A DNA stretch of 51,288 bases from an uncultured Bdellovibrionales bacterium (GCA_964436855.1 CAYTED010000009.1:1-51288); one strand, 5' to 3'. Positions 8,098-47,353 are shown, counted from the stretch's first letter. Made by a program: numbers and translations. Notes: a model not told the origin generated them from the letters alone.

Positions 8098-8132
8098 GAG
8101 AATAGAGAATAACGAATCACGAATCAAGAATA
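8098..8132. repeat. Period-7 tandem array (right arm of the four-helix-bundle cassette)
   Basis: gagaata gagaata acgaatc acgaatc aagaata. Confidence 0.75.
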
Positions 8133-8508
8133 CGTTTTTGACTTTTTAATCAAGCCACTTATGATCTTGTGCGTCAAAACATTTTGATCAGCGAGTTTCT
8201 GAAACTTTTCTTTTGTTAAAAATCCGACATCTCTTGCAATAAGCAATTGATTCTGGAGTTCCGTTAAAAATCTGTGCGCCATACTATAAAACTACACCTT
8301 CTCTTTGTAAGACTGTCTACTGAAACCTCCAGCAATATTCGAAGTTACCGAAACAGCACATCTTCTCATCTGATTTTGTAAGAGCGAAGATCTCTTTTTG
8401 TGGAAATAATTCAGTTTCTCTATACATCAGAATAACAAGTTTATGCCCTTCTTTCCATGCATCAAGATCAGTAAAAGATTGTATTGTTTTTTTCTTTTCT
8501 TGATTCAT
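8124..8508 (-). pseudogene. Four-helix-bundle protein (23S rRNA IVP / bAvd-like family), disrupted
   Basis: SFTDLDAWKEGHKL..FPQKEIFALT, then an extra A (acaaaatcag) shifts frame. The shifted frame reads NQMRRCAVSVTSNIAGGFSRQSYKEKV*FYSMA..TELQNQLLIARDVGFL..GLIKK, with an in-frame TAG at about 8292. Confidence 0.85.
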
Positions 8509-8570
8509 AATTCCTGATTCCCCATTCTTGATTCTTTATTCCTCATTCCTGATTCTTCATTCCTGATTCA
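8497..8570. repeat. Period-7 tandem array (10 units TTCnnnA)
   Basis: ttcttga ttcataa ttcctga ttcccca ttcttga ttcttta ttcctca ttcctga ttcttca ttcctga; overlaps the parA stop and the start of the bundle gene. Confidence 0.9.
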
Positions 8571-9334
8571 TCTCGCTCCCTTTCGACAATTTCCCGTGCT
8601 GCTTGTTTGTAGGCACGGGCACCCTTGGAAAACGCATCGAAATCGAGAATAGACTTTCCGAAACTCGGCGCTTCAGCAAGCCTGACCGATCGTGGCACGA
8701 CCGCTTCAAAAACCGGCCCCGGAAAATGCGACCGCACCTCGTTTACCACCTGTCGCGCCAAACGATTGCGACGATCAAAAAGGGTGCAAAGCGCTCCCAT
8801 AATTTTCAAATTCGGCTGCAAATGCTCACGCACGAGCTCTATCGTTCCAAGTAACTGCGAGAGCCCTTCGAGCGCATAGTATTCCGTCTGCACGGGAATC
8901 ACGACTTCGTCACTCGCAACAAGTCCATTCACCGTGAGAAGTCCGAGCGATGGCGGACTGTCGATCAAAATATAGTCATAATATGATCGAAGCTGTCGCA
9001 ATACATGATAGAGACGAAATTCCCGTCCCTCAAGATGCACCATTTCAATCTCCGCACCCGCAAGATCTTGCGCCGCGGGAATAAGATGAAGGTTTTCCGC
9101 CGGTGTCGAAACGACCAATTCCTTCGGATTAAGCCCAAGCACCATCGCGTGATAGAGATTTTTCTCGCGACTCCGCGCGTCCACTCCGAGTCCCGACGAG
9201 GCATTCCCCTGCGGATCAAGGTCCACAAGAAGTACTTTTTTTCCAAAATCCGCCAAGTACCGACCGATATTAATGGTGGTCGTCGTTTTCCCAACGCCAC
9301 CTTTTTGATTTACGAATGCGATGATTTTCGCCAT
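8543..9334 (-). CDS. parA: Chromosome partitioning ATPase ParA/Soj
   Basis: NQKGGVGKTTT deviant Walker A, DLDPQGNAS, IDSPPSLG, PVQTEYYALEGL, EAPSFG. Confidence 0.96.
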   Translation of the reverse strand: MAKIIAFVNQKGGVGKTTTTINIGRYLADFGKKVLLVDLDPQGNASSGLGVDARSREKNLYHAMVLGLNPKELVVSTPAENLHLIPAAQDLAGAEIEMVHLEGREFRLYHVLRQLRSYYDYILIDSPPSLGLLTVNGLVASDEVVIPVQTEYYALEGLSQLLGTIELVREHLQPNLKIMGALCTLFDRRNRLARQVVNEVRSHFPGPVFEAVVPRSVRLAEAPSFGKSILDFDAFSKGARAYKQAAREIVERERDESGMKNQE

Positions 9335-9342
9335 AATTTGCA

Positions 9343-9438
9343 GAAGAATAAAGAATCAGGAATCAAGAATTATGAATAAAACAAAAGATCCCCTTGAGAG
9401 CATTTCTTGATTCACTATTCTTGATTCTTAATTCCTCT
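9343..9438. repeat. Inverted pair of period-7 arrays (empty element) upstream of parA
   Basis: gaagaat aaagaat caggaat caagaat tatgaat ... ttcttga ttcacta ttcttga ttcttaa ttcctct. Confidence 0.85.
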
Positions 9439-9513: not shown

Positions 9514-9600
9514 GCCCGGGTGGCGGAATTGGTAGACGCACGGGACTCAAAATCCCGCGATAGCAATATCATGAGAGTTCGATTCTCTCCTCGGGCACCA
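9514..9600 (+). tRNA. tRNA-Leu(CAA)
   Basis: Acceptor GCCCGGG/CTCGGGC-A-CCA, D-loop GGAATTGGTAGAC, anticodon loop CTCAAAA, long variable arm, T-loop GTTCGATT. Confidence 0.97.
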
Positions 9601-9611: not shown

Positions 9612-9718
9612 ACCAGGGTGATGTCAGGCGTGGCAAAATCCAATGATAGCAATATTATGAGAGTTTCTTGTCTGCCATACTGCAAGGCTGTAGGCGGAGA
9701 GTCTCTCCTTGGGTACAA
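9612..9718 (+). pseudogene. Degenerate second copy of tRNA-Leu interrupted by a hairpin
   Basis: ccagggtg, aaaatccaatgatagcaatattatgagagtt and tctctccttgggtac match segments of the adjacent tRNA; about 35 extra nt sit in the T-loop. Confidence 0.6.
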
Positions 9719-13696: not shown

Positions 13697-15562
13697 TTAC
13701 TCCACCGTAACGCTCTTTGCAAGGTTGCGCGGTTTATCGATGTCGTACCCGCGTTCCAGCGCGACATAGTAAGCAAAGAGTTGGAGCGGAAGCGCGGCAA
13801 GTATCGGATTGAGCATCTCTCTTGTTTTTGGGATGAAAAATGTATCTGTCGCCTTCTTTTGTATCGCCATATCTCCCTCGGTCGCAATCGCGAACACTTT
13901 CCCGCCGCGCGCAAGCACCTCTTCGATCCCGCTCATATTCTTCTCGTAGACGCTGTCTTTCGGAACTATTCCTATCACACACATATCATCGTCGACGAGC
14001 GCGATCGGCCCGTGCTTCATCTCGCCCGTCGGATACCCTTGTGCCGGCACATAGGCGATCTCTTTTATTTTGAGCGCGCCCTCAAGTGCAAGCGGGAAAT
14101 TATGTATCCGTCCGAGATACATATATTGCATCGTTTTCGCGTATTTTTTCGCGAGCGCTCTGATCGTCTCCGCTTGCGTGAGAATTTTTTCCATTTGTTT
14201 CGGAATCTTTTCGATTGCTTTTACTGCCTGTTTTATTTTCTCCGCCGATAATCCGCGATCTTTCCCGAGAAAAACCGCAAGGAGCGAGAAAATCGCGAGC
14301 TGCGAGGTGAATGCCTTGGTCGAAGCGACACTGATCTCCGGTCCCGCATGGCAATACATCCCGGCATTCGTTTCACGTGCGATACTCGACCCGACAACAT
14401 TGACAATTCCAATCGTGAGCGCCCCTTGTCGTTTTGCCTCTCGAAGCGCTGCAAGCGTATCAGCTGTTTCTCCGGATTGCGACACGGCAATAACAGCGGT
14501 TCTCTTATCAAGAATCGGTTTTCGATATCGGAATTCCGATGCTGTCTCGACTTCGGTCGGAATACGCGCGAGCTCTTCGATCATATATTCCGCGACCAAT
14601 CCCGAATGGTATGATGTCCCGCATGAAACAATCACGATACGATTGATCGATCGCAGTTTTCTCTCAATCGATTTCAATCCACCCAGTCGCACCGAACCTT
14701 CTTTCACGAGAAGCCTCCCTCGAAGCGCGTCGGCAAATGTCCGCGGCTGCTCGAAAATTTCCTTCAGCATAAAATGCGGGTACTCGCCCTTTCCTGATGC
14801 CGTGGATGCAGGGTCGATATCGATGGAATCCTTCTTTCTTTCCTTTCCCGAACGGGTTTTCACAACAAACGATCCGCTTTCGATCGACGCCTGCTCGTAG
14901 TCGTCAAGATACACCGCTTTTCGGATATTTCCCGACATTGCCGAGACATCGGATGCGATACAGATTCCCTCCTTGCCGATTCCGATTACAAGCGGACTCG
15001 AGAGTCGCGCCGCACACAACTTCCCCGGTTCATCCGCCGAAAGCGCGACAATGCCGTACGCGCCGCGAAGTTTCTTTATCGCTTTCCCAAACGCCTCTTC
15101 GAAATTTTTTTCTCCTCGCGCATATTCTTCTTCGATCAGGTGCGCGATCACTTCGGTATCCGTTTCCGATCGGAATCGATGCCCCTTTCGTTCAAGCTCT
15201 TCTTTCAGTTCCCGATAATTTTCGATAATGCCATTGTGTACAATCGCTATTTTTCCACTGCAATCGATATGCGGATGCGCGTTTTTTTCCGATGGTTTCC
15301 CATGGGTCGCCCACCGTGTGTGTGCGATGCCGATACATCCTCCTATATCGGACGGTAATTTTTCTTCAAGATTGACGACTTTCCCTGATGATTTCACCAC
15401 CCGCATTCGATTTTTTGGATCTCGAATTTTGACTTTTGATTTTTGATGTTCAAGAACAGCAATACCGGCGGAATCATACCCGCGATACTCGAGTCGCTTG
15501 AGTCCCTCGATGAGAAACGCCTTCGCCGGTTTTTTCCCGACATAGCCCACAATGCCACACAT
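13697..15562 (-). CDS. glmS: Glutamine--fructose-6-phosphate aminotransferase
   Basis: MCGIVG, LEYRGYDSAG, HTRWATHG, SQSGETADT, EGALKIKE, DKPRNLAKSVTVE. Confidence 0.98.
   Translation of the reverse strand: MCGIVGYVGKKPAKAFLIEGLKRLEYRGYDSAGIAVLEHQKSKVKIRDPKNRMRVVKSSGKVVNLEEKLPSDIGGCIGIAHTRWATHGKPSEKNAHPHIDCSGKIAIVHNGIIENYRELKEELERKGHRFRSETDTEVIAHLIEEEYARGEKNFEEAFGKAIKKLRGAYGIVALSADEPGKLCAARLSSPLVIGIGKEGICIASDVSAMSGNIRKAVYLDDYEQASIESGSFVVKTRSGKERKKDSIDIDPASTASGKGEYPHFMLKEIFEQPRTFADALRGRLLVKEGSVRLGGLKSIERKLRSINRIVIVSCGTSYHSGLVAEYMIEELARIPTEVETASEFRYRKPILDKRTAVIAVSQSGETADTLAALREAKRQGALTIGIVNVVGSSIARETNAGMYCHAGPEISVASTKAFTSQLAIFSLLAVFLGKDRGLSAEKIKQAVKAIEKIPKQMEKILTQAETIRALAKKYAKTMQYMYLGRIHNFPLALEGALKIKEIAYVPAQGYPTGEMKHGPIALVDDDMCVIGIVPKDSVYEKNMSGIEEVLARGGKVFAIATEGDMAIQKKATDTFFIPKTREMLNPILAALPLQLFAYYVALERGYDIDKPRNLAKSVTVE
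15413..15447. repeat. Period-7 array inside glmS
   Basis: ttttgga tctcgaa ttttgac ttttgat ttttgat; encodes the HQKSKVKIRDPKN loop. Confidence 0.55.
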
Positions 15563-16266: not shown

Positions 16267-19155
16267 CTACACCACGATACTCACGAGTTTTCCGGGCACG
16301 ATGATTACTTTTCGGATTTCTTTTCCATCCGTGTGTTGCTTTACTTTTTCGCTTGCAAGCGCCGACTGACGAAGTTCCTCATCCGAAGCATTGGCCGAGA
16401 GGCTGAGGCGATCACGCACTTTTCCATTTACCTGTACGACTATTTCCACCTCCTCGACAATAATTTTTTTCTTGTCCCACTGCGGCCACTCCCCAAGAAA
16501 AATCGATTTTTTGTTGCCAAGTTTTTCCCACAATTCTTCGGCGATATGCGGAGCGAAAGGAGATAAAAGAAACAAAAGTGTTGCGTAATTTTCTTTACTC
16601 AGCATTGTTTCTTTCTCCATCGCATTGACCAAAATCATAAGCGAGCTCACCGCGGTATTGAATTTGAATTCTTCGATATCTTCCGTGACTTTTTTGATCG
16701 TTTGATGCAACAGACTTTCAAGACCTTTGCCCTTAGCTTTTGAGCTTCTCTTTTCAACCCTGTCTTGTAGTTTCCACACTTTTTCCAAGAACCGGCGCGC
16801 GCCAACGACACCCTCCGTATTCCAGGCAATGTTTTGCGTAAACGGCCCCAAAAACATTTCGTATATACGGAGCGAATCGGCTCCAAGCTCTTCGATAATA
16901 TCATCCGGATTGATCACATTGCCGTATCGCTTCGACATTTTTCTGCCATCAGAGGCAAGGATAAGTCCGACATAGACCAAACGCTTGAACGGCTCTTTCC
17001 CCGAAACAACACCGACATCAAAGAGAAATTTGTGCCAAAATCGAGCATAGAGCAAATGACGAGTCGCGTGTTCCGCGCCACCAACATAGAGATCGACCGG
17101 CATAAAAGCGGCTTCTTTCTTTTTGTTGACGAGCGCTTTTTTGTTGTCCGGATCGATATAGCGAAGATAGTACCAAGAAGACCCCGCCCACTGCGGCATG
17201 GTATTTGTTTCGCGACGAGCGGGCCCTTTGCATTTCGGGCACTTTGTCTTCACCCACCGTTCTATGCTCGCAAGCGGAGACTCTCCGGTACCCGTTGGCT
17301 CGTACGATCGCACGTTTGGAAGAATCACCGGCAAGTCTTGTTCCGGAACCGGCACGGCGCCGCACTTTTCGCAATGAACGATGGGGATCGGCTCTCCCCA
17401 ATAGCGTTGCCGAGAAAACACCCAGTCGCGCATTTTGTAATTCACCGATTTTTTCCCGAGCTTTTTTTTCTCAAGCCACTGTATCATTTTTTCTCGTGCC
17501 TCTGCCGATCGAAGTCCCGTAAAATCCCCGGAATCAATGAGCACTCCATCTCCGGTATATATTTCTTCCTTGCTACGAAAAACTCGCCACATGAAAGCAT
17601 GGTGCGTACCAAGTTGAGAGATATCTCCGACACGATCAAGCGGCTCCCAAAATAACTCATGCGTATCATGTTCTTCATCAGAAAGACCCTCTCGTTCCAT
17701 GTCCTTCAAGGAGGCGACAAACACTATATCTCGATCACAACAATTCACCCCTTTTCTTTCTTTGAATCCATGACCATACAATGCTGGAATAAGTATTCTT
17801 TCGATAGCAATATTTTTGTACCCGGTCTCCTCTTGAATTTCTCGAACGATTGCTTCTTCCGGATCTTCTCCCTTCTCAATTCCTCCTCCAGGAAAAACAC
17901 AAGTTCCTCCTTGTTTGCGGCGCAAGATAATCGTCTTTTTTTTCTCCGGATCAAGAACAATTGCCGTGACACAATCTTTTGACGTTGTCTCTTTGTCTTC
18001 TCTTGGGGTACACTCTCCCTTCATAACAATATAAGGCGCTACCGTCTGCACAGTAGGCAAGTCGTATTTCTTTGCAAAAACAGCGTCTCGTTCGTCATGT
18101 GCCGGAACCGCCATTACCGCGCCGGTACCATAATTTCCCAATACATAATCCGCGACAAAAATCGGCACGCCCTTGCCGGTAAACGGATTAACCGCTTCTA
18201 TTCCTTCCAGTTGTATGCCGGTTTTTTCTTTTCCAAGTTCGGTCCGCTCGAGCTCTGATTTCTTTTTTGTTTTCTCGATATATTTGCGAACCGCTTTGTT
18301 ACCTGGATGCGTTGCCTCCCATTCCGACACCAATGGATGTTCCGGCGCCACCACCACAGAGGTACAGCCAAAAATCGTATCGATTCTTGTCGTAAAAACT
18401 TCGAGGAATTGATTTTCTTTTTGATTCTGAGTACTGGCATTTCGATCCGTCAACGAAAATCGTACCATCGCCCCCTCGCTTCGTCCGATCCAATTTTTTT
18501 GTTGCGTAACAATAGACTCCTCCCATTGGAGCTCCTTTGAATCAAGATCTCGCAGCAATCGATCAGCATATCGCGTCATTCGCAACATCCACTGACGCAT
18601 CGGTCGTTTTTCCACCTCGCTCCCACAGCGCTCACACAGACCGTTTTCCAAATCCTCATTGGCAAGACCGGTCTGGCAAGAAGGGCACCAATTGATCGGC
18701 TCATGCGATTCGTATGCCAATCCTTTTTTGTAGAGTTGAAGGAAAATCCACTGCGTCCATCGATAGAATTCGGGGTCGGTCGTATTGATTTCTCGATTCC
18801 AGTCATAGGTAAACCCGATTTTTTCCAATTGTTTTTTGAACGTAGCGACATTCTTTTTTACCGCAATACTCGGGTGGACGTGATTTTTTATCGCATAGTT
18901 TTCTGCAGGAAGACCAAACGCATCCCAACCCATCGGATGCAATACGCCGTACCCCTGCATTTGCTTCATACGAGCAACGACATCGGTCGCGATATATCCC
19001 TTTGGATGCCCCACATGAAGACCCGCCCCCGAAGGGTACGGAAACATATCAAGCACATAAAATTTCTTTTTCCGCGCATACTGGCGATAGATTCCTTTTT
19101 TCTCCCAAATCTTTTGCCATTTCTTTTCGATTGACTGAGCGCGATACGGTTTCAT
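16267..19155 (-). CDS. leuS: Leucine--tRNA ligase with an internal Nudix domain
   Basis: MFPYPSGAGLHVGH, GWDAFGLPAEN, DWVFSRQRYWGEPIP, KMSKR; Nudix box at about 17816-17890; start set at MKPYRAQ. Confidence 0.96.
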   Translation of the reverse strand: MKPYRAQSIEKKWQKIWEKKGIYRQYARKKKFYVLDMFPYPSGAGLHVGHPKGYIATDVVARMKQMQGYGVLHPMGWDAFGLPAENYAIKNHVHPSIAVKKNVATFKKQLEKIGFTYDWNREINTTDPEFYRWTQWIFLQLYKKGLAYESHEPINWCPSCQTGLANEDLENGLCERCGSEVEKRPMRQWMLRMTRYADRLLRDLDSKELQWEESIVTQQKNWIGRSEGAMVRFSLTDRNASTQNQKENQFLEVFTTRIDTIFGCTSVVVAPEHPLVSEWEATHPGNKAVRKYIEKTKKKSELERTELGKEKTGIQLEGIEAVNPFTGKGVPIFVADYVLGNYGTGAVMAVPAHDERDAVFAKKYDLPTVQTVAPYIVMKGECTPREDKETTSKDCVTAIVLDPEKKKTIILRRKQGGTCVFPGGGIEKGEDPEEAIVREIQEETGYKNIAIERILIPALYGHGFKERKGVNCCDRDIVFVASLKDMEREGLSDEEHDTHELFWEPLDRVGDISQLGTHHAFMWRVFRSKEEIYTGDGVLIDSGDFTGLRSAEAREKMIQWLEKKKLGKKSVNYKMRDWVFSRQRYWGEPIPIVHCEKCGAVPVPEQDLPVILPNVRSYEPTGTGESPLASIERWVKTKCPKCKGPARRETNTMPQWAGSSWYYLRYIDPDNKKALVNKKKEAAFMPVDLYVGGAEHATRHLLYARFWHKFLFDVGVVSGKEPFKRLVYVGLILASDGRKMSKRYGNVINPDDIIEELGADSLRIYEMFLGPFTQNIAWNTEGVVGARRFLEKVWKLQDRVEKRSSKAKGKGLESLLHQTIKKVTEDIEEFKFNTAVSSLMILVNAMEKETMLSKENYATLLFLLSPFAPHIAEELWEKLGNKKSIFLGEWPQWDKKKIIVEEVEIVVQVNGKVRDRLSLSANASDEELRQSALASEKVKQHTDGKEIRKVIIVPGKLVSIVV

Positions 19156-19220
19156 ACGATTGATTCCATTAAAAAAACAAAGAATATCCTTTATCATAGC
19201 CGAAAAATCTCTCTTTTGGC

Positions 19221-19253
19221 AAGAAAAAACCCGATTACTCGGGTCTTTTTTCT
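19221..19253 (-). terminator. Intrinsic terminator after the DUF4349 gene
   Basis: ACCCGA-ttac-TCGGGT hairpin with flanking A/T tracts. Confidence 0.65.
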
Positions 19254-19265
19254 TGATATATCTTT

Positions 19266-20294
19266 TTATTTCTTTTCCTGAAAGAATCGGCTCATTAATT
19301 TTCGGACCAGTCTGTAAACACCATACAAGAGCACACCGTAAATGAGGATAAGCGGGAGTCCGACGATGACGAATATAATCGCTCCCATTGCAAGTTTCCC
19401 AAGATTTCCAAAGAGCGTTTGAATTGCTTCCTTGATTACTTCCCATGGGCGAAGCGATGACTTTCCGGAGACAATCTTAGCATCTTCTTGGAAAGATACG
19501 GTGATCGTCGCCATATCGGTTTGCGAAGAAAGATATCGGAGCTGTCCTTCGAGCGACTCAATCTCTCCGCGAACCACTCCAAGCTCCCTTGTAACATCGA
19601 TCACGTCGCCTATCTTCTCCGCTTTTCCAAGGAGCGCCTGCAATGATTCTTCTTGCGCTCGTTTATTCTTCAATCGCGCCGAAAGGTCAATATACTGCGC
19701 CGTCACATCTGATCCGGATGTGTTCTCATTTATTACTTGCGTTGCAATACTTCGCACCTCGCGCATCACGCCATCAAACTCCGCAACCGGAACTTTCAGC
19801 ATAACCACCCCTGATTTTTCCCTGTTTCCGTACGAGGAAACATTGCTCGATGCCACCTCTCCGGAAAATTTCTTGGCGATGTCCTGGAGTTTCGTTAGTG
19901 TTTCATCCGCGTTCTTCACGCGAATATCAAATTGTCCGTTTTTGATGATTTTTTTATCTGTCTCCGGAGCCTGTGCGTACCCATCGTTCATCATCACCGG
20001 CACGCCGGCATCCGATGACACCGCATTTTCTCTTTCATTGAAAATTTCCCGCCTCATCATCTTCTCCTGCGGCGTAACCGCTCCCGCATTCTCATTGCGG
20101 GTGTCGTCGTCAAATCGGGGACCATCCATCATTACGGACGGATTCATCATTCCCCCGCGACCACTCCACATCTTGCGCGCGGTCAATGCGCCTACCGCGG
20201 CCAAAAGGAGACTTGCGATAAAAATCCCAACAAGTATCCATAATGCCCACTTCACAACCTTCTGAAGCATTGTCGGCGATATTGTATTGTGCAT
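19266..20294 (-). CDS. DUF4349-like membrane protein
   Basis: N-terminal TM, KKIIKNGQFDIRV, DVTAQYIDLSARLKN, IESLEGQLRYL, C-terminal TM; alternative start at 20270. Confidence 0.82.
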   Translation of the reverse strand: MHNTISPTMLQKVVKWALWILVGIFIASLLLAAVGALTARKMWSGRGGMMNPSVMMDGPRFDDDTRNENAGAVTPQEKMMRREIFNERENAVSSDAGVPVMMNDGYAQAPETDKKIIKNGQFDIRVKNADETLTKLQDIAKKFSGEVASSNVSSYGNREKSGVVMLKVPVAEFDGVMREVRSIATQVINENTSGSDVTAQYIDLSARLKNKRAQEESLQALLGKAEKIGDVIDVTRELGVVRGEIESLEGQLRYLSSQTDMATITVSFQEDAKIVSGKSSLRPWEVIKEAIQTLFGNLGKLAMGAIIFVIVGLPLILIYGVLLYGVYRLVRKLMSRFFQEKK

Positions 20295-20695: not shown

Positions 20696-21268
20696 TTATT
20701 TTGCAATTTCGAAGAAAAACGAGCTCTTCACTTCGAGGAGTTTTTCCATCGCCGGAGTCCCATCGGCTGAAAGAATTTTCATTTTGGCTTCGGTCGCGCG
20801 ATCGATAATCGCTCGCAACTCTTCTGATGAGAAAATCTTTTCTTCATGATACCCGAGAAAAAGAGTCGTAATTTCCCGAAGATACTCGATAAACATTTGC
20901 ACTTCCGGTTCCGGATACATTTGGAGCAGCTTATTGGCGACATCGTTCACATCCGAGAGCGTGGTCGCAAGCGACTGAAATTGTCCATATACGCCCTCAA
21001 GCACCCGACGTTCAATCCCAAGCGCTTCCGACATCATATGCATCTCCGTCTCAATCATCTCCTTCTTCAGTTGCGATCCGTTTTCGTGTCGCGGTCCCGC
21101 TTCGACAAAAAACTTCTCCATCGACTCAAGATACGTCACAAACGAATCCAATTCTTCGTAATGGTATTTTTCGCGGAGACGATTCGCCACGAGTTCGATA
21201 TTTTTGATCTGCTTTTGCTCCGGCCGACCTTCTAAGAGTTTTTTGATGATATTTTTCTCGAATGTCAT
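20696..21268 (-). CDS. Hypothetical helical protein
   Basis: 190-aa ORF tightly packed between atpC and the receiver gene; no motif recognised. Confidence 0.65.
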   Translation of the reverse strand: MTFEKNIIKKLLEGRPEQKQIKNIELVANRLREKYHYEELDSFVTYLESMEKFFVEAGPRHENGSQLKKEMIETEMHMMSEALGIERRVLEGVYGQFQSLATTLSDVNDVANKLLQMYPEPEVQMFIEYLREITTLFLGYHEEKIFSSEELRAIIDRATEAKMKILSADGTPAMEKLLEVKSSFFFEIAK

Positions 21269-21293
21269 AGTGAAATCAGTATATCACATCTTG

Positions 21294-21737
21294 TCATTCC
21301 GGAAGACCGATGCCGTGCCTGCTATGGTGTTTTTTCGCTACACGAACACGCGCCAGCTCTTTTTCGAGTATGGCTGCGACACGTGCGTATTCTTCATCAT
21401 CGGCCCGCACGCGTTCTTGCATAATTTTTTCCGCTTCTCTTCGCGCCTTTTCCGCCCGAGCAAGATCAATTTCTTCGGCTCGCTCGGCAGTATCCGCCAA
21501 GATTACCAACGTATTGTTGTGAAATTCCACAAATCCTCCGGAAGTCGCAATCATCTTCCCCTCCTCTTCCGCGTTTCCGCGAAGAAAAATCTCACCCGCT
21601 TTCAGAGCGCCGATATATGGGATGTGATGCGGAAGAAGCGTTACCTCTCCACCCTCAACCGGAAGTGTTACCTGATATACCTCTTGTTCAAAGACAGTTT
21701 TTTCCGGTGTTACCACCTTGAGATTTATATGTACCAT
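21294..21737 (-). CDS. atpC: F1Fo ATP synthase epsilon
   Basis: LKVVTPEK, GEVTLLPHHIP, SGGFVE, ILADTAERAEEID. Confidence 0.95.
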   Translation of the reverse strand: MVHINLKVVTPEKTVFEQEVYQVTLPVEGGEVTLLPHHIPYIGALKAGEIFLRGNAEEEGKMIATSGGFVEFHNNTLVILADTAERAEEIDLARAEKARREAEKIMQERVRADDEEYARVAAILEKELARVRVAKKHHSRHGIGLPE

Positions 21738-21749
21738 AACCTTAGAAGA

Positions 21750-33844: not shown

Positions 33845-34241
33845 TGTCATTCCCGCGAAGGCGGGAATCCAGTTACCACAAGGCTTTTATCGGATCAAGT
33901 CAAAATACAGATCATTCCATTTCGGATTTTTTTCTTCAATAAGACGTATTTTCCATGCCCTGTTCCATTTTTTCATTTGCTTCTCTCTCAAGAGGGCGCT
34001 CCTGATATCACTCGTTTGTTCGTAATACACCAACTTGTCTACGCCATATTCTTTTGTAAATCCGTCAGCTTTTTTATTCTTATGTTCCCAGATACGCTTT
34101 AGTAAGTCCGAGGTTACACCGATATAGAGCGTGCCATTCCGATCACTCGCGAGAATATATACGACGTACTGTTTTTCATTCATTCATTTTTCTCTCTATC
34201 AAATTTGTGACATCTGGATTCCCGCCTTCGCGGGAATGACA
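33845..34241. mobile_element. GIY-YIG cassette bounded by a perfect 28-bp inverted REP-like pair
   Basis: TGTCATTCCCGCGAAGGCGGGAATCCAG (33845-33872) and its exact reverse complement (34214-34241); each copy is itself a hairpin. Confidence 0.8.
33887..34183 (-). CDS. Small GIY-YIG nuclease
   Basis: YVVYILASDRNGTLYIGVTSDLLKRIWEHK..LVYYE..ALLREKQMKKWNRAWKIRLIEEKNPKWNDL. Confidence 0.93.
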   Translation of the reverse strand: MNEKQYVVYILASDRNGTLYIGVTSDLLKRIWEHKNKKADGFTKEYGVDKLVYYEQTSDIRSALLREKQMKKWNRAWKIRLIEEKNPKWNDLYFDLIR

Positions 34242-34246
34242 GCCCC

Positions 34247-34274
34247 TTATTCTTTATTCTTTATTCTTTATTCC
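34247..34274. repeat. Period-7 array (ttattct x3 + ttattcc)
   Basis: Abuts the GIY-YIG inverted repeat and overlaps the peptidase stop codon. Confidence 0.75.
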
Positions 34275-35539
34275 ACATTCAATATTCTCAAAAACCCTGC
34301 CTTGTTTGTATGCGGACCAATGATCGCGAGGTTAAGTTTCTTTCTTGTGAAAATATCTTTCGCAACACGAAGCACATCGTCTGCCGTCACCTTATCGATC
34401 AGTTTCCGTTTTTCTTTCGGGAGAACAATTTCGTTTCGCGAAATCTCCTGTCCTACAAGGTACTCGATTACATCGTCGGATCCCTCAAAACTCATCGCGA
34501 GTTTGCCTTTGAGATATTCTTTTGCTTTTTTCAGTTCGTCCTCGTCTATTTTTTCTGTCGCGATTTTCTTGTATTCGGCAAGGATCACCTCAATAGTCTT
34601 TTCAAGATTTTCGTGTTCCACTCCCGCTTGCGTCGCGAGGTATCCGGCGTCATGAAACGTATCAACAGAAGTATGCACGCTATATGCAAGCCCGCGACGT
34701 TCGCGCACTTCAATGAAAAGACGAGACGACATACCACCCCCAAGAATCGCTGCGAGCACCGAGAGGACATACCTGTCCTTGTGATGCATATCGTATGCCC
34801 GAACACCGAGGATCATATGCGTTTGATCGGTTTTCTTTTCTTGAATGAACAGCTCGGGTTTCGACTGTCGATCGATCGCTTTTTTGGTCGTCGGTCGTTT
34901 GCCGTGGCCGATATGTCCGAATCGCTTCTCGATTTCTTTTTTCATTTTCTTCGGATCGAATTTTCCGGCGATACCCACCACCATATTTTCCGAAACATAT
35001 CCGCGCTTCATATACCGCACAAAATCCGCACGCTTGAATGATTTGATATTTTCTTTTGTTCCAATAATTTCCCATCCAAGCGGCGTATCACCATAGAGGT
35101 GTCGTTCCCACAGATCGCCAATATGTCGCATCGGCATATCCTCGTACATATTGAGTTCCTGCAGGATTGTTCCGCTTTCTCGATCGATTTCCTCTTGTTC
35201 CAGTTTTGCGTTGAGAAAAATATCCGAAACAACATCGAGCGCCGTCTCGGCATGATGCTGCTCCACCTTGGCATAGTATCCGGTATATTCTTTTCCGGTA
35301 AAAGCATTGTACTCCGCGCCGACACCGTCGAGCTCTTTACTGATATCGAGCGCGGTCGGACGCTTGGCGGTCCCTTTGAACATCATGTGCTCGAGAAAGT
35401 GCGCAATTCCATTTTCTTTGCGTGTTTCGTAGCGCGATCCGACACCGGTCATGACAAGCACCGTCACCGTCTCCGTATCCTGCATCGGCGCGAGAATAAT
35501 CCGCAAACCGTTTTTCAGTGCATGTTTTTTGTAGTTCAT
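34268..35539 (-). CDS. M16 family (pitrilysin-like) zinc peptidase
   Basis: GIAHFLEHMMFKGT (HxxEH), YNAFTGKEYT, GGGMSSRLFIEVRERRGLAY; start set at MNYKK. Confidence 0.93.
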   Translation of the reverse strand: MNYKKHALKNGLRIILAPMQDTETVTVLVMTGVGSRYETRKENGIAHFLEHMMFKGTAKRPTALDISKELDGVGAEYNAFTGKEYTGYYAKVEQHHAETALDVVSDIFLNAKLEQEEIDRESGTILQELNMYEDMPMRHIGDLWERHLYGDTPLGWEIIGTKENIKSFKRADFVRYMKRGYVSENMVVGIAGKFDPKKMKKEIEKRFGHIGHGKRPTTKKAIDRQSKPELFIQEKKTDQTHMILGVRAYDMHHKDRYVLSVLAAILGGGMSSRLFIEVRERRGLAYSVHTSVDTFHDAGYLATQAGVEHENLEKTIEVILAEYKKIATEKIDEDELKKAKEYLKGKLAMSFEGSDDVIEYLVGQEISRNEIVLPKEKRKLIDKVTADDVLRVAKDIFTRKKLNLAIIGPHTNKAGFLRILNVE

Positions 35540-35546
35540 AGATACA

Positions 35547-35580
35547 GAAGAATAAAGAATTAAGAATGAAGAATGAAATA
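35547..35580. repeat. Period-7 array upstream of the peptidase
   Basis: gaagaat aaagaat taagaat gaagaat. Confidence 0.75.
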
Positions 35581-35809
35581 TAACCAATAATACCTATTTT
35601 ATCAATAGCATTCAGAGTAATTTGACCTTTTCTTCTTCTTTCATTACATTAACGGCAATGAGGAGGAAAGGCAATCCCAATCGCTAGTTCGGTGTCGACA
35701 AGAAGCATCATCTCGATACCGTTTTCCAAATCTTTCCGAACAGAACCGGTTTCCATCCAAAAAAGTCCCCTTGGAAAAGATTCTGGTCTCTTATCTCATT
35801 TGCGATAGC

Positions 35810-37788: not shown

Positions 37789-38982
37789 TTATTTCTTCAA
37801 ACGATCCATCAATCGCGCATAAAAACGGAGATTGTGCAGTGAAGCAAGACCCAGCGCAAGTGGTTCACCTACACGAAAAAGATGCCGGAGATAGGCTTTC
37901 GTATAATTTCTACACAATTCACAGTCACAGGTTTCATCAATTGGAGTGAAGTCTTCTTTGAACTGCTCATTGTTGATATTCAAAGTTGAATAAAATTCGA
38001 ATTTTGAATTTTGAATTTCGGTTGAATTTCTCATTTCTAATTTCTCTAATTCTGAATTGATTCGAAATTCAGGATTCGAAATTAAACATTGCGCTTGTTT
38101 GTCATTCATGACAAACAAGCGGCCGTGCCTTCCTTCTCTTGTCGGGATCACGCAGTCAAACATATCCCATCCGAGAGAATGACACCGAACGATATCCGAA
38201 GGCGTCCCGATACCGAGCGCAAATCGCGGTTTGTCTTCGGGGATATATAACGCCGTTTTTTCAAGGATTTCCTCCAGAAAATTCCCCTCTTCATCAATAT
38301 GTCGGCCGCCGAATCCATATCCATCAAAACCGATTGCGATCAATGCTTCCGCACAGCGCTTGCGTTCTTCGACGATCATCCCTCCTTGGACCACGGCAAA
38401 CAAAAGCGGCTTGTCTTTTTCCGAATATCCACGTTTGGTAATTTGCTGTTCGTATTCCGCCTTGCATCGCTTTGCCCAACGAATAGTCCGATCGACGGCC
38501 TGCACAATTTCTTCCTTCGGCGCATCGTTTGGACGCGGATCGTCGAGACACACCATCATATCGACACCGAGATCGAATTGAATCTCGATCGATCGCTCGG
38601 GAGTGAGGAGATATTTCGATCCATCAAGTACCGATTTGAATTCCGCTCCCTCTTCGGTGATCTTTCCCATTTCCGGATTTTTGTGAATGAGCGAATAGAC
38701 TTGGTATCCGCCGGAATCGGAAAGAGTCGGTCGATTCCAGTGCATAAATTGATGAACGCCGTTTGTTCGAGCAATCAATTGCTCACCGGGTTGCAACATC
38801 AAATGATACGTATTCACCACGAGTGCCTCGATACCAACTTTTTCAAGTTCCTCCGGCGTCACTCCACGCACCGAGGCACGTGTCGCGTCCGGCATAAAAA
38901 ACGGGGTCGAGAGGACTCCGTTTCTTGTGATAAGTTCGCCATACCGGCGACCTTCTTTTTGTGAAACGATGTGAAAACTCAT
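37789..38982 (-). CDS. tgt: tRNA-guanine transglycosylase with a repeat-derived insertion
   Basis: DSGGYQ, VQGG, DMFDCVIPTR, CDCELC..HN zinc site. Confidence 0.93.
   Translation of the reverse strand: MSFHIVSQKEGRRYGELITRNGVLSTPFFMPDATRASVRGVTPEELEKVGIEALVVNTYHLMLQPGEQLIARTNGVHQFMHWNRPTLSDSGGYQVYSLIHKNPEMGKITEEGAEFKSVLDGSKYLLTPERSIEIQFDLGVDMMVCLDDPRPNDAPKEEIVQAVDRTIRWAKRCKAEYEQQITKRGYSEKDKPLLFAVVQGGMIVEERKRCAEALIAIGFDGYGFGGRHIDEEGNFLEEILEKTALYIPEDKPRFALGIGTPSDIVRCHSLGWDMFDCVIPTREGRHGRLFVMNDKQAQCLISNPEFRINSELEKLEMRNSTEIQNSKFEFYSTLNINNEQFKEDFTPIDETCDCELCRNYTKAYLRHLFRVGEPLALGLASLHNLRFYARLMDRLKK
37996..38083. repeat. Period-7 array inserted in frame in tgt
   Basis: cgaattt tgaattt tgaattt ... 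atttctc atttcta atttctc ... ttcgaaa ttcagga ttcgaaa; encodes ISNPEFRINSELEKLEMRNSTEIQNSKFE. Confidence 0.8.
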
Positions 38983-41615: not shown

Positions 41616-41619
41616 GCGT

Positions 41620-41658
41620 TAAATGTCAAAATCCAAATTTCAAATGTCAAATCAAATC
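41620..41658. repeat. Period-7 array upstream of recO
   Basis: taaatgt caaaatc caaattt caaatgt caaatca. Confidence 0.7.
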
Positions 41659-43562: not shown

Positions 43563-46500
43563 TTATTTTGAACGATTAAGCTGAAATGAAAAATCTTCAC
43601 CTTCAATCTCGAGAGTTTCATTATACTCCGCGTTTTCAAGTTCTCCGTTTTTCACCTCGGTGGCGAGGATTTCCCTCCCGATCATCTCACCGAACATTTC
43701 GAATACTTTTTCTTTGCCTTGATAGCCAAGAACAATTCTATCACTCACCTCAAATCCTGCTTTCTTTCGGCCCTCCTGGATTGCACGGATGATTTCGCGA
43801 GCATCGCCCTCAAGTTTGAGTTCTTCGGTGATTTTAACATCTAATGAGATCATTTCTTTGAGATCTTTCTCAACAAGAATAGTTTTTACATTTAATTCCT
43901 CTAAAATAACCCCTTCTAATTCTTTTGTAGCAATTGGAGCCATAAGTATCACAGCCCCCAAGGGTTGTCTCACTTTAATACCTGCTTTCGCTCTAAGCTC
44001 TAATCCTTTACTAATAATATATCGTACAGCCTCCATTTCTGAATTAAGATCTTCATCAATCAGCTGTTCGTCTGTTTCTGGCCAATCTGCAAGATGTACT
44101 GACTCAGGATCCTTCGACTCGCCGACTCGCTCAGGATGACAAGCAGAGCTTGTCAGATTCCGATACATTTCCTCGGCGAGGAATGGCGTGAATGGTGCCA
44201 TCAGTTTCGAAAGCGTTGCGAGCACAGTATACAAGGTCTGATACGCTTGCTCTTTATCATCGTCATTTTCGTTTTTCCAAAATCTTTTGCGGCTGCGACG
44301 AATGTACCAATTCGAAAGATTATCAATGAATGGCATGAAGAGACGAGTCGCCTTGGCAAGTTCATAGCACTCCATCGCATTGTTTACATCTCGAATTAAT
44401 ATATGTAATTCGGAAAGCATCCAACGATCAAGGAGATTCTTCGACGGCTCGGCGGCCTCCTTCGGAGTCCACTGATCAATCTCTGCATACATCATGAAAA
44501 ACGAATATGAATTCCAGAGCATACGAAACACATTGCGTGATGTTTCTGAGAGATCTCGCTCTGAGAAATTAAGGTTTTCTGCTGCCACGATCGGTGAAGA
44601 CAAGAGATAGAAACGCAGTGCATCTGCACCATATTTGTTCACAATCTCCATCGGATCCGGGTAGTTCTTGAGCTTCTTCGACATCTTCTTCCCGTCTTCC
44701 GCAAGCACTATGCCGTTTACAATCACATTTTTGAAAGCAACACTATCCCTGATCGCTGTACCGATCACGTGCTGGTAGTAGAACCACGCACGCGTCTGAT
44801 CGACGCCCTCGGCGATGAAGTCGGCCGGAAAGCTCTTTTCGAAGTGCTCCGTATTTTCAAATGGATAGTGCTCCTGCGCGTACGGCATCGAACCGGAATC
44901 AAACCAGGTATCAAGCACATCCGGAATGCGCTTCATCGTTCCGTTACATTCTTCACAAGTGACAGTGATTTCATCGACGATATGCTTATGCAGATCTTCC
45001 ACTTTCTTTCCACTCGCCTTTTCCAATTCAGCAACAGAACCAAAAACAACAATGTGTCCACATCCCTGTTCCATGTTCCCTGTTCCATGTTCTATGCCAT
45101 TGCATTTCCAAATCGGCATCACCGATGCCCAATAGCGTTGACGGCTGATCGACCAATCACGTGCGCCTTCGAGCCATTTGCCGAATCGCCCTTCTTTGAT
45201 GTGTTCCGGTGACCAACGGATATCCTTCGCGAGATCGAGCATCTTTTCCTTGATCTTCGTCACCGAGACAAACCACGACGACGTCGCATAGTTGAGAAGC
45301 GGCGTATCGCAGCGCCAGCAGTGCGGATAGCTGTGCTCATATTTTTCTTTTGAAAAAAGGAGTCCATTGTGCGCAAGGTATTTGATAATTTCAACATCCA
45401 TTTCCTGCGGATTTTCTCTTGGCTTCACTGGTTTGCCAGCGAAATCAGTTACTTCTTCCTTCATCGCTCCATCCATCTTCACATGCTGCACAAATGGAAG
45501 ATTCTTTTCCTTGCCAAGATTCATGTCGTCCTCACCAAACGCTGGTGCAATATGCACCACACCTGTTCCATCCTCTGTCGTCACAAAATCCGCAGCATAG
45601 ATCTTCCATCCATTTTCATGATTCGGGAGCGTTGTATCTTTTGAATAATAATCAAAGAGCGGCTTATAGGATTTTCCGACAAGATCAGCGCCTTTAAGCT
45701 CTCGAATAACTTCTGGCTGCGTATTCCGAAAGCCACTTGCATGTTTTCCGTTTATAATGTGCCTCCCATGGCGAAGATCTTCCTTCATTTTTTCAAAGGA
45801 AATTTTAGAAAGAATGGTATATTCTTCTTTAGATTTAACCTCGGAATTAACATTCGCAACAGAATCATCCTCGTTTTGAACCCATGAGTCCTTTACAAGG
45901 ACATATTCAATATCCTCCCCTACTGCCAAAGCGACGTTCCCTGGCAGGGTCCAAGGCGTCGTTGTCCATGCCAAAATATACGTCTTTTCTTCGTTTTCTG
46001 TTGACTGTTCATTGTTCTCTGTTAACTGAAATTTCGCCACCGCCGAGAGATCCTTCACATCCTGATACCCCTCACTTACTTCTTGCTGACTCAAAGTCGT
46101 CTCACAGCGTGGACAAATATGCATCGAGCGATAGCTTTCATAGATGAGCCCCTTGTCCCAGAGCTCCCTGAAGACCCACCATACGCTCTCCATATATTCC
46201 TTGTCCATGGTGCGATAGGCATTTTTCATGTCCGCCCAGCGGCCGATACGCGGGATCACTTTCTCCCATTCGGCGGCATACTCGAGCACCGTCGATCGAC
46301 AGAATTCATTGAACTTCGCTACGCCCATCGCTTCGATATCTTTCTTGTGTTTGATGCCAAGTTCCTTCTCTGCGATGTTTTCGATCGGCAATCCATGACA
46401 GTCCCATCCCCATTTCCGCTCCACCTGGAATCCTTTCATAGACCAGAATCGCGGCACCGCATCCTTAATCACGCTCGCGACGATATGCCCATAGTGAGGC

Positions 46501-46658
46501 AACCCCGTCGCAAACGGAGGCCCATCATTGAAACTATACTTCGGTTTTCCCGCGCGATGCTCCACCGACTTCTCGAAAATCTTCTGCTCATCCCAAAATT
46601 TGAGGATCTCCTCCTCCATTTTCGGAAAATTCATCTTCGGATCAACTTTTTTGAACAT
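43563..46658 (-). CDS. ileS: Isoleucine--tRNA ligase, type 2 (eukaryote-like)
   Basis: DGPPFATGLPHYGH, GWDCHGLP, WTTTPWTLPGN, DWSISRQRYW, KMSKK, LSNWYIRRSR; start set at MFKKV. Confidence 0.96.
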   Translation of the reverse strand: MFKKVDPKMNFPKMEEEILKFWDEQKIFEKSVEHRAGKPKYSFNDGPPFATGLPHYGHIVASVIKDAVPRFWSMKGFQVERKWGWDCHGLPIENIAEKELGIKHKKDIEAMGVAKFNEFCRSTVLEYAAEWEKVIPRIGRWADMKNAYRTMDKEYMESVWWVFRELWDKGLIYESYRSMHICPRCETTLSQQEVSEGYQDVKDLSAVAKFQLTENNEQSTENEEKTYILAWTTTPWTLPGNVALAVGEDIEYVLVKDSWVQNEDDSVANVNSEVKSKEEYTILSKISFEKMKEDLRHGRHIINGKHASGFRNTQPEVIRELKGADLVGKSYKPLFDYYSKDTTLPNHENGWKIYAADFVTTEDGTGVVHIAPAFGEDDMNLGKEKNLPFVQHVKMDGAMKEEVTDFAGKPVKPRENPQEMDVEIIKYLAHNGLLFSKEKYEHSYPHCWRCDTPLLNYATSSWFVSVTKIKEKMLDLAKDIRWSPEHIKEGRFGKWLEGARDWSISRQRYWASVMPIWKCNGIEHGTGNMEQGCGHIVVFGSVAELEKASGKKVEDLHKHIVDEITVTCEECNGTMKRIPDVLDTWFDSGSMPYAQEHYPFENTEHFEKSFPADFIAEGVDQTRAWFYYQHVIGTAIRDSVAFKNVIVNGIVLAEDGKKMSKKLKNYPDPMEIVNKYGADALRFYLLSSPIVAAENLNFSERDLSETSRNVFRMLWNSYSFFMMYAEIDQWTPKEAAEPSKNLLDRWMLSELHILIRDVNNAMECYELAKATRLFMPFIDNLSNWYIRRSRKRFWKNENDDDKEQAYQTLYTVLATLSKLMAPFTPFLAEEMYRNLTSSACHPERVGESKDPESVHLADWPETDEQLIDEDLNSEMEAVRYIISKGLELRAKAGIKVRQPLGAVILMAPIATKELEGVILEELNVKTILVEKDLKEMISLDVKITEELKLEGDAREIIRAIQEGRKKAGFEVSDRIVLGYQGKEKVFEMFGEMIGREILATEVKNGELENAEYNETLEIEGEDFSFQLNRSK
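44107..44141. repeat. REP-like palindrome in frame in ileS (CHPERVGESKDP)
   Basis: Minus strand TGTCATCCTGAGCGAGTCGGCGAGTCGAAGGATCC; starts with the same TGTCAT tag as the GIY-YIG repeats. Confidence 0.6.
45064..45098. repeat. Period-7 array inside ileS
   Basis: ccctgtt ccatgtt ccctgtt ccatgtt ctatgcc (GIEHGTGNMEQG). Confidence 0.8.
45996..46028. repeat. Period-7 array inside ileS
   Basis: ttctgtt gactgtt cattgtt ctctgtt (LTENNEQSTENE). Confidence 0.75.
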
Positions 46659-46662
46659 ATTA

Positions 46663-47085
46663 TTACTCAATATTATCTTGTAACTTTTTCTTGATCGCCT
46701 GCAGTAATTCTGAAGAAAGTTGAAAATGCTTATCCGTTTTCCAGTTATGTCCCCACTCTTCATCAATAAACTTCACTCCCTCGAAAACTCTTTCCGAGGA
46801 ATAGCGAGGAACAATATGCCCGTGCAAATGCCTCGTTTCATTTCCCAAAAAAGCATAGTTCATCCAATCCGCTTGAAATGTTTTTTCAAGAGCATTCTTC
46901 ATTTCTGGAAGGATCTGAAAAAGCTCTTCTTGTTCTTCTTTTGTCGCATCCGTTAAATCCAAAGCATCTTCTCGTTTACACCAAAGTACACTGCGCCCCA
47001 AATACCCCTGATTGGTATGTACCAACCATATCCAGTATTGGTAATCTTTTACAATATTTTGTGAGTAATCTTCAATATCTGACAT
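46663..47085 (-). CDS. HIT family hydrolase
   Basis: NYAFLGNETRHLHGHIVPRY (HxHxH triad). Confidence 0.88.
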   Translation of the reverse strand: MSDIEDYSQNIVKDYQYWIWLVHTNQGYLGRSVLWCKREDALDLTDATKEEQEELFQILPEMKNALEKTFQADWMNYAFLGNETRHLHGHIVPRYSSERVFEGVKFIDEEWGHNWKTDKHFQLSSELLQAIKKKLQDNIE

Positions 47086-47109
47086 ATATTAATCTGTAAA
47101 AATTATGAA

Positions 47110-47353
47110 TAAAAACAAAAAATCCCTAACACAAAAAATCGTGCTAAGGACGTTTGAAAAAATCAAAACGTGGTACCACCTTAATTTTAGTAACTCGTAA
47201 TCGGTAATCGGTAATCAGGGCTTAAATACTCCAGTGACCGGCTACTCATTACAAATTACCCTTATTCCTGCTGTTACGGGCTTACCCGGCGAAGTCTAAT
47301 CATGCGAAAGCACTTTCTTTCCGCAGCTCCGGAGTGATCGCTCCTTCATCGCC
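47110..47353 (-). ncRNA. T-box riboswitch (Ile, AUC specifier) with ultrashort Stem I and intrinsic terminator
   Basis: Minus strand: Stem I GGCGAUGAAGGAG-CG-AUC-A-CUCCGGAGCU (AUC at 47338-47336); Stem II with an AGAA/UAGA internal loop; CGGGUAAGCCCGUAACAGC; antiterminator AAGG-UGGUACC-ACG..CGU-CCUU; terminator UCCUUAGCAC..GUGUUAGGGA-U6. Confidence 0.9.
47190..47261. repeat. Inverted pair of period-7 arrays inside T-box Stem III
   Basis: gtaactc gtaatcg gtaatcg gtaatca ... gtgaccg gctactc attacaa attaccc. Confidence 0.75.

Follow-up and report, generated by a model that had tools for sequence, protein, structure and literature searches.

The window analyzed here is a 51,288-nucleotide stretch of DNA (CAYTED010000009.1:1-51288, assembly GCA_964436855.1, deposited as an uncultured Bdellovibrionales bacterium) in which arrays of degenerate 7-nucleotide (nt) units, or heptamers, recur between genes and inside some of them. 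Judged by its AtpG, tRNA-guanine transglycosylase (TGT), and ParB homologues, the host belongs to Candidatus Moranbacteria (Patescibacteria, also termed the candidate phyla radiation, CPR). Nearly every gene lies on the minus strand: parB, parA, glmS, the leucyl-tRNA synthetase gene, the atpBEFHAGDC operon, and the genes for methionyl-tRNA synthetase, an AI-2E transporter, an M16 peptidase, TGT, RecO, Ddl, isoleucyl-tRNA synthetase (IleRS), and arginyl-tRNA synthetase. Host coding sequence makes up ~87% of the window. The first-pass annotation of this DNA had taken AT-rich sequence as its background, a premise that does not apply, as GC content is 44-53% and the window is not AT-rich overall.

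In our view, the period-7 arrays probably represent the arms of hairpin insertion elements, a family of the intervening sequence (IVS) type known from rRNA genes. A full-length element consists of a 5′ arm of ~4-5 units, a four-helix-bundle (4HB) gene, and a complementary 3′ arm; short versions consist of two arms and a small loop. The features of the window are as follows, with z scores from the folding test described below.

8090-8135, minus strand: 3′ arm of the 4HB cassette, made of ~5 NNNATTC units and reaching the parB ATG (8095)
8124-8508, minus strand: 4HB pseudogene (PF05635/S23p/Avd-like), recognized from two Pfam halves and a three-frame translation
8497-8572, minus strand: 5′ arm of the 4HB cassette, ~10 GAATNNN units in the mRNA sense, overlapping the last ~9 parA codons and the stop and containing the 4HB ATG (8508)
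9341-9437, minus strand: empty GAAT/ATTC hairpin filling the parA leader; it begins directly past a TATAAT box and stops 6 nt short of the ATG; dG -34.2, z -4.25
15415-15455, minus strand: heptamer array of CAAAANT units, translated in a variable loop of GlmS, from the period-7 scan and protein comparison
21745-21835, minus strand: empty hairpin at atpD-atpC, GATTTAN/NTAAATC arms; z -3.96
23267-23337, minus strand: hairpin between the ORF6N pseudogene and atpD, GATTTAN arms, ending 10 nt before the atpD ATG; z -3.82
23333-23877, minus strand: ORF6N-domain gene split by a frameshift, occupant of the atpG-atpD hot spot
23874-23905, minus strand: solitary 5′-type arm of GATTTNN units, 6 nt past the atpG stop, orthologous to the arm in the empty L083/L084 junction
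24814-24896, minus strand: empty GAAT/ATTC hairpin at atpA-atpG, ending 5 nt before the atpG ATG; z -4.05
26440-26520, minus strand: empty hairpin at atpH-atpA, AGAATNT arms; z -3.28
27735-27829, minus strand: empty hairpin with GAATTTT/AAAATTC arms, starting at the atpB stop; z -4.26
32684-32785, minus strand: periodic AATTTTG-type element between the AI-2E transporter and TP-methylase genes, pairing no better than shuffles
33844-34242, minus strand: GIY-YIG element, separate from the heptamer family, gene at 33887-34183, with perfect 29-bp inverted repeats
34240-34288, minus strand: solitary arm, (GAATAAA)4, located at the stop of the M16 peptidase gene; in L083, the orthologous junction has a 4HB cassette with GTAT/ATAC arms
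35542-35590, minus strand: solitary ATTC-type array ending 2 nt before the M16 peptidase ATG (35539)
37989-38100, minus strand: periodic element in the TGT gene, a 39-aa in-frame insertion (aa 293-331)
41618-41656, minus strand: solitary array of GACATTT/GATTTNG units in the mRNA sense (AAATGTC on the plus strand), ending 2 nt before the recO ATG
45057-45101, minus strand: GAACAKG array in the IleRS gene, an 11-aa insertion
45990-46028, minus strand: NAACAGN array in the IleRS gene, an 8-aa insertion
47190-47261, minus strand: GTAATNN/NNATTAC hairpin in a T-box leader, a ~53-nt insertion in stem III

We scanned the window for periodicity in a 21-nt sliding window at cutoffs of at least 15/21 and at least 18/21 matches, using second-order Markov shuffles as the control. 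At the lower cutoff, lag 7 gave 23 segments, compared with 16 at its harmonic, lag 14, 0-7 at other lags, and a mean of 0.53 (maximum 3) in shuffles. At the higher cutoff, eight segments were found at lag 7, and none at any other lag save lag 14 or in 50 shuffles. Tandem Repeats Finder lists the same array sites. All 18 coordinates given in the first-pass annotation match period-7 arrays, and the autocorrelation that it had proposed finds no enriched period other than 7 and the harmonic 14. Its statement that the core varies between sites and agrees within a site was also confirmed, with at least six unit classes occurring within 51 kb. The hairpin elements share the unit type only, and their loops and tails differ. 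Same-class hairpins were aligned within the window to prove paralogy; their likeness was limited to low-complexity units and is not decisive.

Eight sites have reverse-complementary arm units, and we compared the RNA folding of each with 200 dinucleotide shuffles. Six of the eight (9341-9437, 21745-21835, 23267-23337, 24814-24896, 26440-26520, and 27735-27829) fold with z scores of -3.3 to -4.3, and none of the 200 shuffles was equally stable. The two others, 32684-32785 (z +0.1) and 37989-38100 (z -0.7), are periodic yet fold no better than shuffles. The prediction that inverted arms form long hairpins therefore held at six sites but not at these two.

The 4HB gene of the window lies between parA and parB. 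The array pair beginning at 8098 and 8497 does enclose such a gene, as had been noted, but the gene is a pseudogene with one frameshift and one stop: Pfam recognizes it in two halves (E=2e-4 and 2.7e-3), and a three-frame translation shows the frame shifted by one inserted nt near 8377 and a TAG stop at 8294. Its homology to PDB 2GSC (E=3e-20) was established through the copy in L083 (L numbers denote the homologous loci that we compared). In L174, the closest relative at this junction (ParB 86%), the same arms hold an intact 127-aa orthologue annotated as PF05635, whereas L175 and L176 carry empty hairpins of other classes. Arms and 4HB gene are 97-98% identical between the window and L174 (98% for the 5′ arm, 8497-8572), compared with 85% for parA, 83% for parB, 71-74% for further genes, and 80% for the empty parA-leader hairpin, and the identity boundaries are sharp at the arm ends. 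The window cassette is a fresh pseudogene, and the excess of its identity (97-98%) over that of the flanking genes (83-85%) argues for mobility. Cassette identity likewise exceeds flank identity in L093, L094, L098, and L106, where the downstream neighbours can differ. This pattern points to a recently exchanged, site-preferring mobile unit, unlike neutral repeats formed in situ, and to exchange of the cassette between lineages faster than host genes diverge.

We then examined 4HB genes in relatives. With jackhmmer, their atp loci yielded only five intact copies plus a single fragment, a number insufficient for statistics; all five intact genes are bracketed by inverted periodic arms with a site-specific unit (GTAT, ACAACTN/GTTGTAA, AAAAATG, and a period-10 unit). 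A metagenome scan with a two-sequence 4HB alignment gave 80 loci, of which 71 were analyzable, and lag 7 was the best lag in both flanks of all 71. Flanks reached at least 20/28 matches upstream in 65/71 loci (92%) and downstream in 53/71 (75%), compared with 24/1089 control windows in the same loci (2%), which bears out the expected enrichment of arrays beside 4HB genes. The median arm-to-arm duplex energy across these cassettes was -47 kcal/mol versus -30 in shuffles. Consensus units agreed within a locus in 35/60 cases versus 23% between loci, variable tail positions included. The arms change unit-wise, and their cores change jointly on both sides, from GAAT/ATTC to GTAT/ATAC: these classes account for 46 and 16 cassettes, with one mixed and none of the other mixed class (Fisher p = 5e-14, on counts that take no account of phylogeny). 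Arms are 4-5 units long on each side in 49/63 cassettes, which equals a stem of 28-35 bp. Neighbours are co-directional in 83% of cases upstream and 79% downstream; in 36/38 cassettes, no more than 26 nt in either direction separate the 5′ arm from the stop of the co-directional upstream gene, and the 4HB start and stop codons fall inside the arms. The same GAAT/ATTC arms accompany this 4HB clade in many contexts. In the window and in L083, where the 4HB gene is defective, its arms persist.

These data bear on an alternative that we regard as unlikely, namely that the arrays are a mutational by-product: heptanucleotide microsatellites arising in situ by slippage, with hairpins generated by quasi-palindrome template switching, no element, mobility, or function, and 4HB genes that merely share neutral spacers. 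In many bacteria, no long simple repeats are as over-represented as heptamers, for which an origin by slippage has been proposed (Mrazek 2007, as relayed in PMC4679880 and PMC4692102). Whole-unit changes are indeed seen, otherwise identical cassettes differing by 7- or 21-nt indels in the arms. Arrays inside coding loops, unit classes that differ at the same junction in close relatives, and the lack of strand asymmetry described below would also follow, as would the periods of 8, 9, and 10 that occur with the same architecture in relatives and that rule out a strict period-7 rule. However, such a process leaves unexplained why arrays stand at 92% and 75% of 4HB gene ends but in 2% of control windows, why arm length is fixed at 4-5 units, why GAAT/ATTC arms move with a 4HB clade into many contexts, and why identity is 97-98% across arms and gene, breaking off sharply at the arm ends, next to genes at 83-85%.

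The IVS-type reading also draws on the turnover of junctions. Junction gaps in 35 loci are of three kinds: tight ones of 3-50 nt, hairpin-sized ones of ~110-160 nt, and filled ones of 260-2272 nt. Relatives at 82-84% AtpG identity have hairpins with different units, or none, at the same atp junctions. The atpD-atpC hairpin, for example, is missing in L081 and is of other unit classes in L083 and L085, and the parA-leader hairpin has orthologues with other units in L174-L176. The filled/empty polymorphism that the first-pass annotation anticipated in relatives was seen at parA-parB, at atp junctions, and between the M16 peptidase and AI-2E genes, where L083 has the 4HB cassette and the window has the GAATAAA arm and a GIY-YIG gene. 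The atpG-atpD junction is a hot spot: it holds the frameshifted ORF6N gene in the window and ORF6N also in L002, L081, and L082 (undivided, 176 aa, in L081/L082); L083-L085 have it empty, and further relatives have other small genes there.

The idea that the elements carry small cargo genes holds for 4HB but not for the other two candidates. Arms do adjoin ORF6N and GIY-YIG; however, the side of the orthologous arm on which ORF6N (frameshifted in the window) lies varies from genome to genome, and GIY-YIG has perfect inverted repeats of its own, 29 bp long, at its borders. The GIY-YIG element is independent of the heptamer family. Each of its repeats (CTGTCATTCCCGCGAAGGCGGGAATCCAG) is itself a GC-rich hairpin, and similar GTCATTCC...GGAATGAC hairpins occupy atp junctions of L012, L015, and L020. 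These GC-rich hairpins of the CTGTCATTCCCGCGAAGGCGGGAATCCAG type are a second, unrelated family of junction elements.

Placement is precise. In the mRNA sense, 5′ arms start no more than ~30 nt from the upstream stop, some of them overlapping the last codons, and 3′ arms mostly end 2-10 nt ahead of the downstream ATG. Most arrays thus lie at stop/start junctions between co-directional genes, as first described, although those at 15413, 37996, 45064, and 45996 are in frame within coding sequence and that at 47190 is in a T-box leader. Such placement could also be expected of a host regulatory device, in which intercistronic hairpins acting on mRNA stability, processing, or translational coupling set the stoichiometry of products such as those of atp, in the manner of repetitive extragenic palindromic (REP) sequences and bacterial interspersed mosaic elements (BIMEs), and 4HB genes are later passengers. 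We judge this to be distinctly unlikely. Exact stop-to-start placement, occupation of 5/7 atp junctions, a constrained stem length, and a parA-leader hairpin that fills the whole leader and keeps its position in four genomes are all in its favour, and structure near starts matters in a host without Shine-Dalgarno motifs. On the other hand, in L001, L005, and L006 (64-70% AtpG identity) the atp junctions are mostly tight, ~3-80 nt, with few or no arrays; L081 does without the atpD-atpC hairpin; hairpin sequences are not conserved between relatives; and elements also occur in coding sequences and carry decaying genes.

The near-absence of Shine-Dalgarno motifs at gene starts, which are instead preceded by A-rich runs (e.g., aaaaaatATG), suggests that translation initiation in the window is largely Shine-Dalgarno-independent. 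Since nearly all window genes lack the motif anyway, we dropped its absence after arms as evidence. Terminator-like sites numbered 23 versus 17.2 +- 3.9 in shuffles of 21000-35700 and are not enriched, and none of the heptamer hairpins was called as an intrinsic terminator (a GC-rich stem plus U run), so that candidate was rejected. A sigma-70 promoter scan of the same interval showed no enrichment. With Rfam 15 at the gathering score, a tRNA-Leu was the sole match in the window, no rRNA gene was found there, and the loci of seven relatives had no match; no Rfam family accounts for the hairpins or for the long ORF-less atpG-atpD spacers in these sequences.

Arm length bears on a further alternative, in which the units are sites for an oligomeric binder, such as a pentameric 4HB protein or an S1-, Csp-, or HutP-like RNA-binding protein, and the hairpin is secondary. 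Arms of 4-5 units would suit a pentamer (the 2GSC homologue has been described as a homopentamer; PMC4990558), each array combines a conserved core with variable tail positions, and solitary arrays stand directly 5′ of starts (35542, 41618), a position shared with arrays of Beggiatoa and Nostoc, for which a binding protein has been postulated. Nevertheless, we find this highly improbable: the cores within one genome (GAAT, GATTT, AATTTTG, GTAAT, GAACAG) are too diverse for a single sequence-specific binder, periods of 8-10 in relatives argue against a reader specific for 7, arms persist although the 4HB genes of the window and L083 are defective, and compensatory change across the two arms points to pairing.

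Four arrays are translated in frame, two in IleRS and one each in TGT and GlmS. The IleRS insertions of 8 and 11 aa were measured against PDB 8c8v. In TGT, the loop ranges from 5 to ~70 aa among 24 Moranbacteria homologues (62-75% identity), and its peptides are clearly derived from heptamers. TGT homologues P0146 and P0174 have a second hypervariable insertion, GPARNATPASNALRSNADWYSVAG, in another loop (alignment columns 98-122), which looks like a translated GC-rich repeat element. The T-box leader (47143-47358, minus strand) lies upstream of a HIT-domain ORF (46663-47085) and the IleRS gene (43563-46766) and matches RF00230 with 52 bits (E=2e-10), under the gathering score of 93, in part because the heptamer hairpin is inserted in stem III. 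The first-pass annotation had offered an mRNA-processing signal as the other possible identity of the arrays; elements inside coding regions run contrary to it. The sites occupied by the IVS-type elements are insertion-tolerant transcribed places: co-directional junctions, a 5′ leader, the tip of a T-box stem, and, in frame, surface loops.

By analogy with known IVSs, the arms of the transcript would pair into a stem of ~28-35 bp that brings the downstream start close to the upstream stop. RNase III may then cut this stem, as it does in 23S rRNA, so that the insert is released and the operon mRNA divided; alternatively, a ribosome terminating at the upstream stop may melt the stem. Either event would render the insertion nearly harmless to the host operon. 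The heptamer periodicity most likely reflects unit-wise replication slippage, by which a stem could grow and stay pairable in several registers, while selection or template switching would keep the arms complementary.

Several results weigh against this reading, beginning with the uncorrected phylogeny behind the covariation counts. Comparison of sense and antisense folding, with G-U counts, gave 17:13 for array hairpins, which is not significant, and 37:23 for 4HB cassettes (p = 0.35). With no such asymmetry, a DNA-level hairpin is a possible alternative to RNA-level selection on the coding strand. A tblastn search for 4HB remnants in empty hairpins of the window and 85 loci found none, so empty elements may be independent of the cassettes. 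The great difference in unit classes between sites and genomes, together with periods of 8-10, fits repeat evolution in situ as well as it fits mobility. If RNase III cut the element in the TGT coding sequence, the host would be harmed, and that element folds no better than shuffles. The suggestion of a nature like that of miniature inverted-repeat transposable elements also failed, as the elements have no near-identical copies. The 51-kb window contains no transposase, and no target-site duplication was seen, one not being readable next to slippage-prone arms. Collectively, the union of IVS-like elements and heptamer repeats in the operons of a CPR bacterium is partly supported, and for the ORF-less hairpins the microsatellite and host-regulatory readings are live rivals.

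Further observations concern the same loci. An array of the AAATGYC/AAATCCA type at L102 2934-3043 and L105 3044-3153 closely resembles the recO-upstream array (41618-41656), and the loci are unrelated. In atp junctions of relatives, small ORFs for predicted membrane proteins occur on the opposite strand, three at the atpG-atpD hot spot (L003 11004-11357, L010 11180-11527, and L012 11098-11433) and one at atpB-atpE (L021 6153-6398). Downstream of the atp operon, L081 (15465-16869) and L082 (15393-16331) have a reverse transcriptase (RVT_1), with a bAvd-like gene beside the L081 copy, a locus that looks like a diversity-generating retroelement (DGR). In the window, the leucyl-tRNA synthetase (16267-19446, minus strand) contains an inserted NUDIX hydrolase domain (residues 492-622) that follows the editing domain. 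Part of the 3′ half of tRNA-Leu(CAA) (9514-9600) recurs ~50 nt downstream, at ~9640-9690 (caaaatcc..gatagcaatat.atgagagtt), which may be the scar of an integrative element.

Inverted heptamer-array pairs also occur around atp genes at L050 4054-4146 and at L070 2663-2780 and 4650-4737. These are high-GC (0.59-0.60) contigs labelled Gammaproteobacteria, and the architecture is thus not confined to Patescibacteria. A tblastn search of plasmids with the 4HB protein returned 35 records, mostly from Nostocales and Riemerella, which belong to phyla known for heptamer repeats. Of eight cyanobacterial or Bacteroidota copies inspected, seven (in Nostoc, Riemerella, Picosynechococcus, Pseudanabaena, and Stanieria) have period-7/8 arrays on their flanks, in inverted arrangement in Nostoc ATCC 53789, Riemerella, and Picosynechococcus (cas10-4HB-cmr3) and in direct arrangement in Pseudanabaena (cas6-4HB-cas4). 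It is possible, though doubtful, that 4HB genes with inverted tandem-repeat arms form one mobile class across phyla (CPR, Cyanobacteriota, Bacteroidota, and Gammaproteobacteria), with rRNA IVSs as only its rRNA-resident subset, the intergenic heptamers of cyanobacteria and giant sulfur bacteria as its ORF-less derivatives, and the pentameric 4HB protein as its own arm-binding factor for spread or for control of RNase III.

The window and its relatives suggest that three puzzles of ~30 years' standing concern one kind of selfish hairpin cassette: rRNA IVSs with their S23p/4HB ORFs, the dominance of heptanucleotides among the intergenic repeats of some bacteria, and oddly placed PF05635 genes, such as those between cas genes. 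If so, such a cassette could settle in any transcribed spacer, a 4HB gene within an operon is not to be taken as a functional partner of its neighbours, CPR operon mRNAs may be cut or structured at almost every junction, and the elements make new protein loops in essential enzymes. The arm-4HB architecture is a recognizable signature for annotation of CPR genomes.

Several known systems share features with these elements. Within the searchable library, we found no report of heptamer repeats in Patescibacteria, no link between 4HB genes and repeats outside Coxiella, and no account of IVS-like 4HB cassettes with heptamer arms at mRNA junctions. REP/BIME sequences and REPINs of Proteobacteria (PMC3116915) are likewise short intercistronic palindromes that can form mRNA hairpins, spread within genomes, and evolve quickly. 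In contrast to the window elements, REP sequences have a conserved genome-wide sequence and an associated transposase (RAYT) and lack 7-nt periodicity and 4HB cargo (PMC3116915). No consensus is common to all window elements, and the 51 kb of the window contain no RAYT. The Avd protein of DGRs belongs to the same four-helix-bundle superfamily as the cargo protein (PMC10053308); unlike DGRs, the window cassettes have no reverse transcriptase or template/variable repeat beside them. The extra translated surface loops in TGT, IleRS, and GlmS recall Rickettsia palindromic elements, selfish palindromes that Ogata et al. in 2000 reportedly described as inserted in frame in protein and RNA genes. Those are said to form families of conserved sequence, 100-150 bp long, rather than tandem heptamers, and to carry no gene.

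In several phyla, long simple repeats are most commonly heptanucleotide ones, which often stop shortly before start codons and have no established function or reported link to 4HB genes (PMC4679880, PMC4692102, bioRxiv 10.1101/2022.06.06.494920). Cyanobacterial short tandemly repeated repetitive (STRR) sequences, Beggiatoaceae TAACTGA, Nostoc TTTTGAA and GACYAAT, and Xanthomonas GGGAATC repeats share period 7, a strong intergenic bias, copy-number variation, and occasional location in ORFs with the window arrays. Some units coincide: GAATTTT in the window equals Nostoc TTTTGAA, and the CAACTGA-type units of L012, L015, and L019 resemble TAACTGA. Like STRR and long simple sequence repeats (LSSRs), the window arrays have head-to-tail units beyond chance and change by whole units, but they are not built from a few genome-wide units. 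Published heptamer repeats are direct arrays of one or a few such units, inverted pairs being rare among them (1/170 sets, in BOGUAY).

The closest likeness in architecture is to rRNA IVSs (Coxiella burnetii, Leptospira, and Brucella; PMC4990558), in which complementary termini form a stem of ~28 bp and the loop holds a PF05635 ORF that is often decaying. In Coxiella, the 23S rRNA IVS is selfish and 428 nt long; its terminal stem measures 28 bp, its S23p ORF is decaying, and two to three tandem GACAGAT heptamers stand just 5′ of the ATG, their number varying by strain and RNase III cutting at the first repeat (PMC4990558). Likewise, the ATG of the window 4HB gene lies inside the last GAATNNN units. 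IVSs are sited in helix 25 or 45 of 23S rRNA, whereas the window elements lie between protein genes, in leaders, and inside ORFs. Unlike IVSs, their arms are arrays of 4-10 units on both sides, and they occur in many copies per 51 kb, most without an ORF. Excision by RNase III, shown for IVSs, would be expected of the window elements by inference. The suggestion of an IVS-like selfish element therefore stands as regards the stem, the S23p ORF, the heptamers, and the mobile cassette, but not as regards insertion in rRNA. In CPR bacteria themselves, rRNA genes carry 23S_rRNA_IVP ORFs in insertions (PMC11270868). Genes of the 23S_rRNA_IVP family have also been recorded within cas operons (e.g., between cmr2 and cmr3) and read as possibly CRISPR-associated (PMC3936711), a case like the present one in that the same gene family is wedged between co-directional genes. 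The cas-embedded 4HB copies that we inspected (L170 and L173) are flanked by period-7/8 arrays, which suggests selfish insertion rather than a role in CRISPR.

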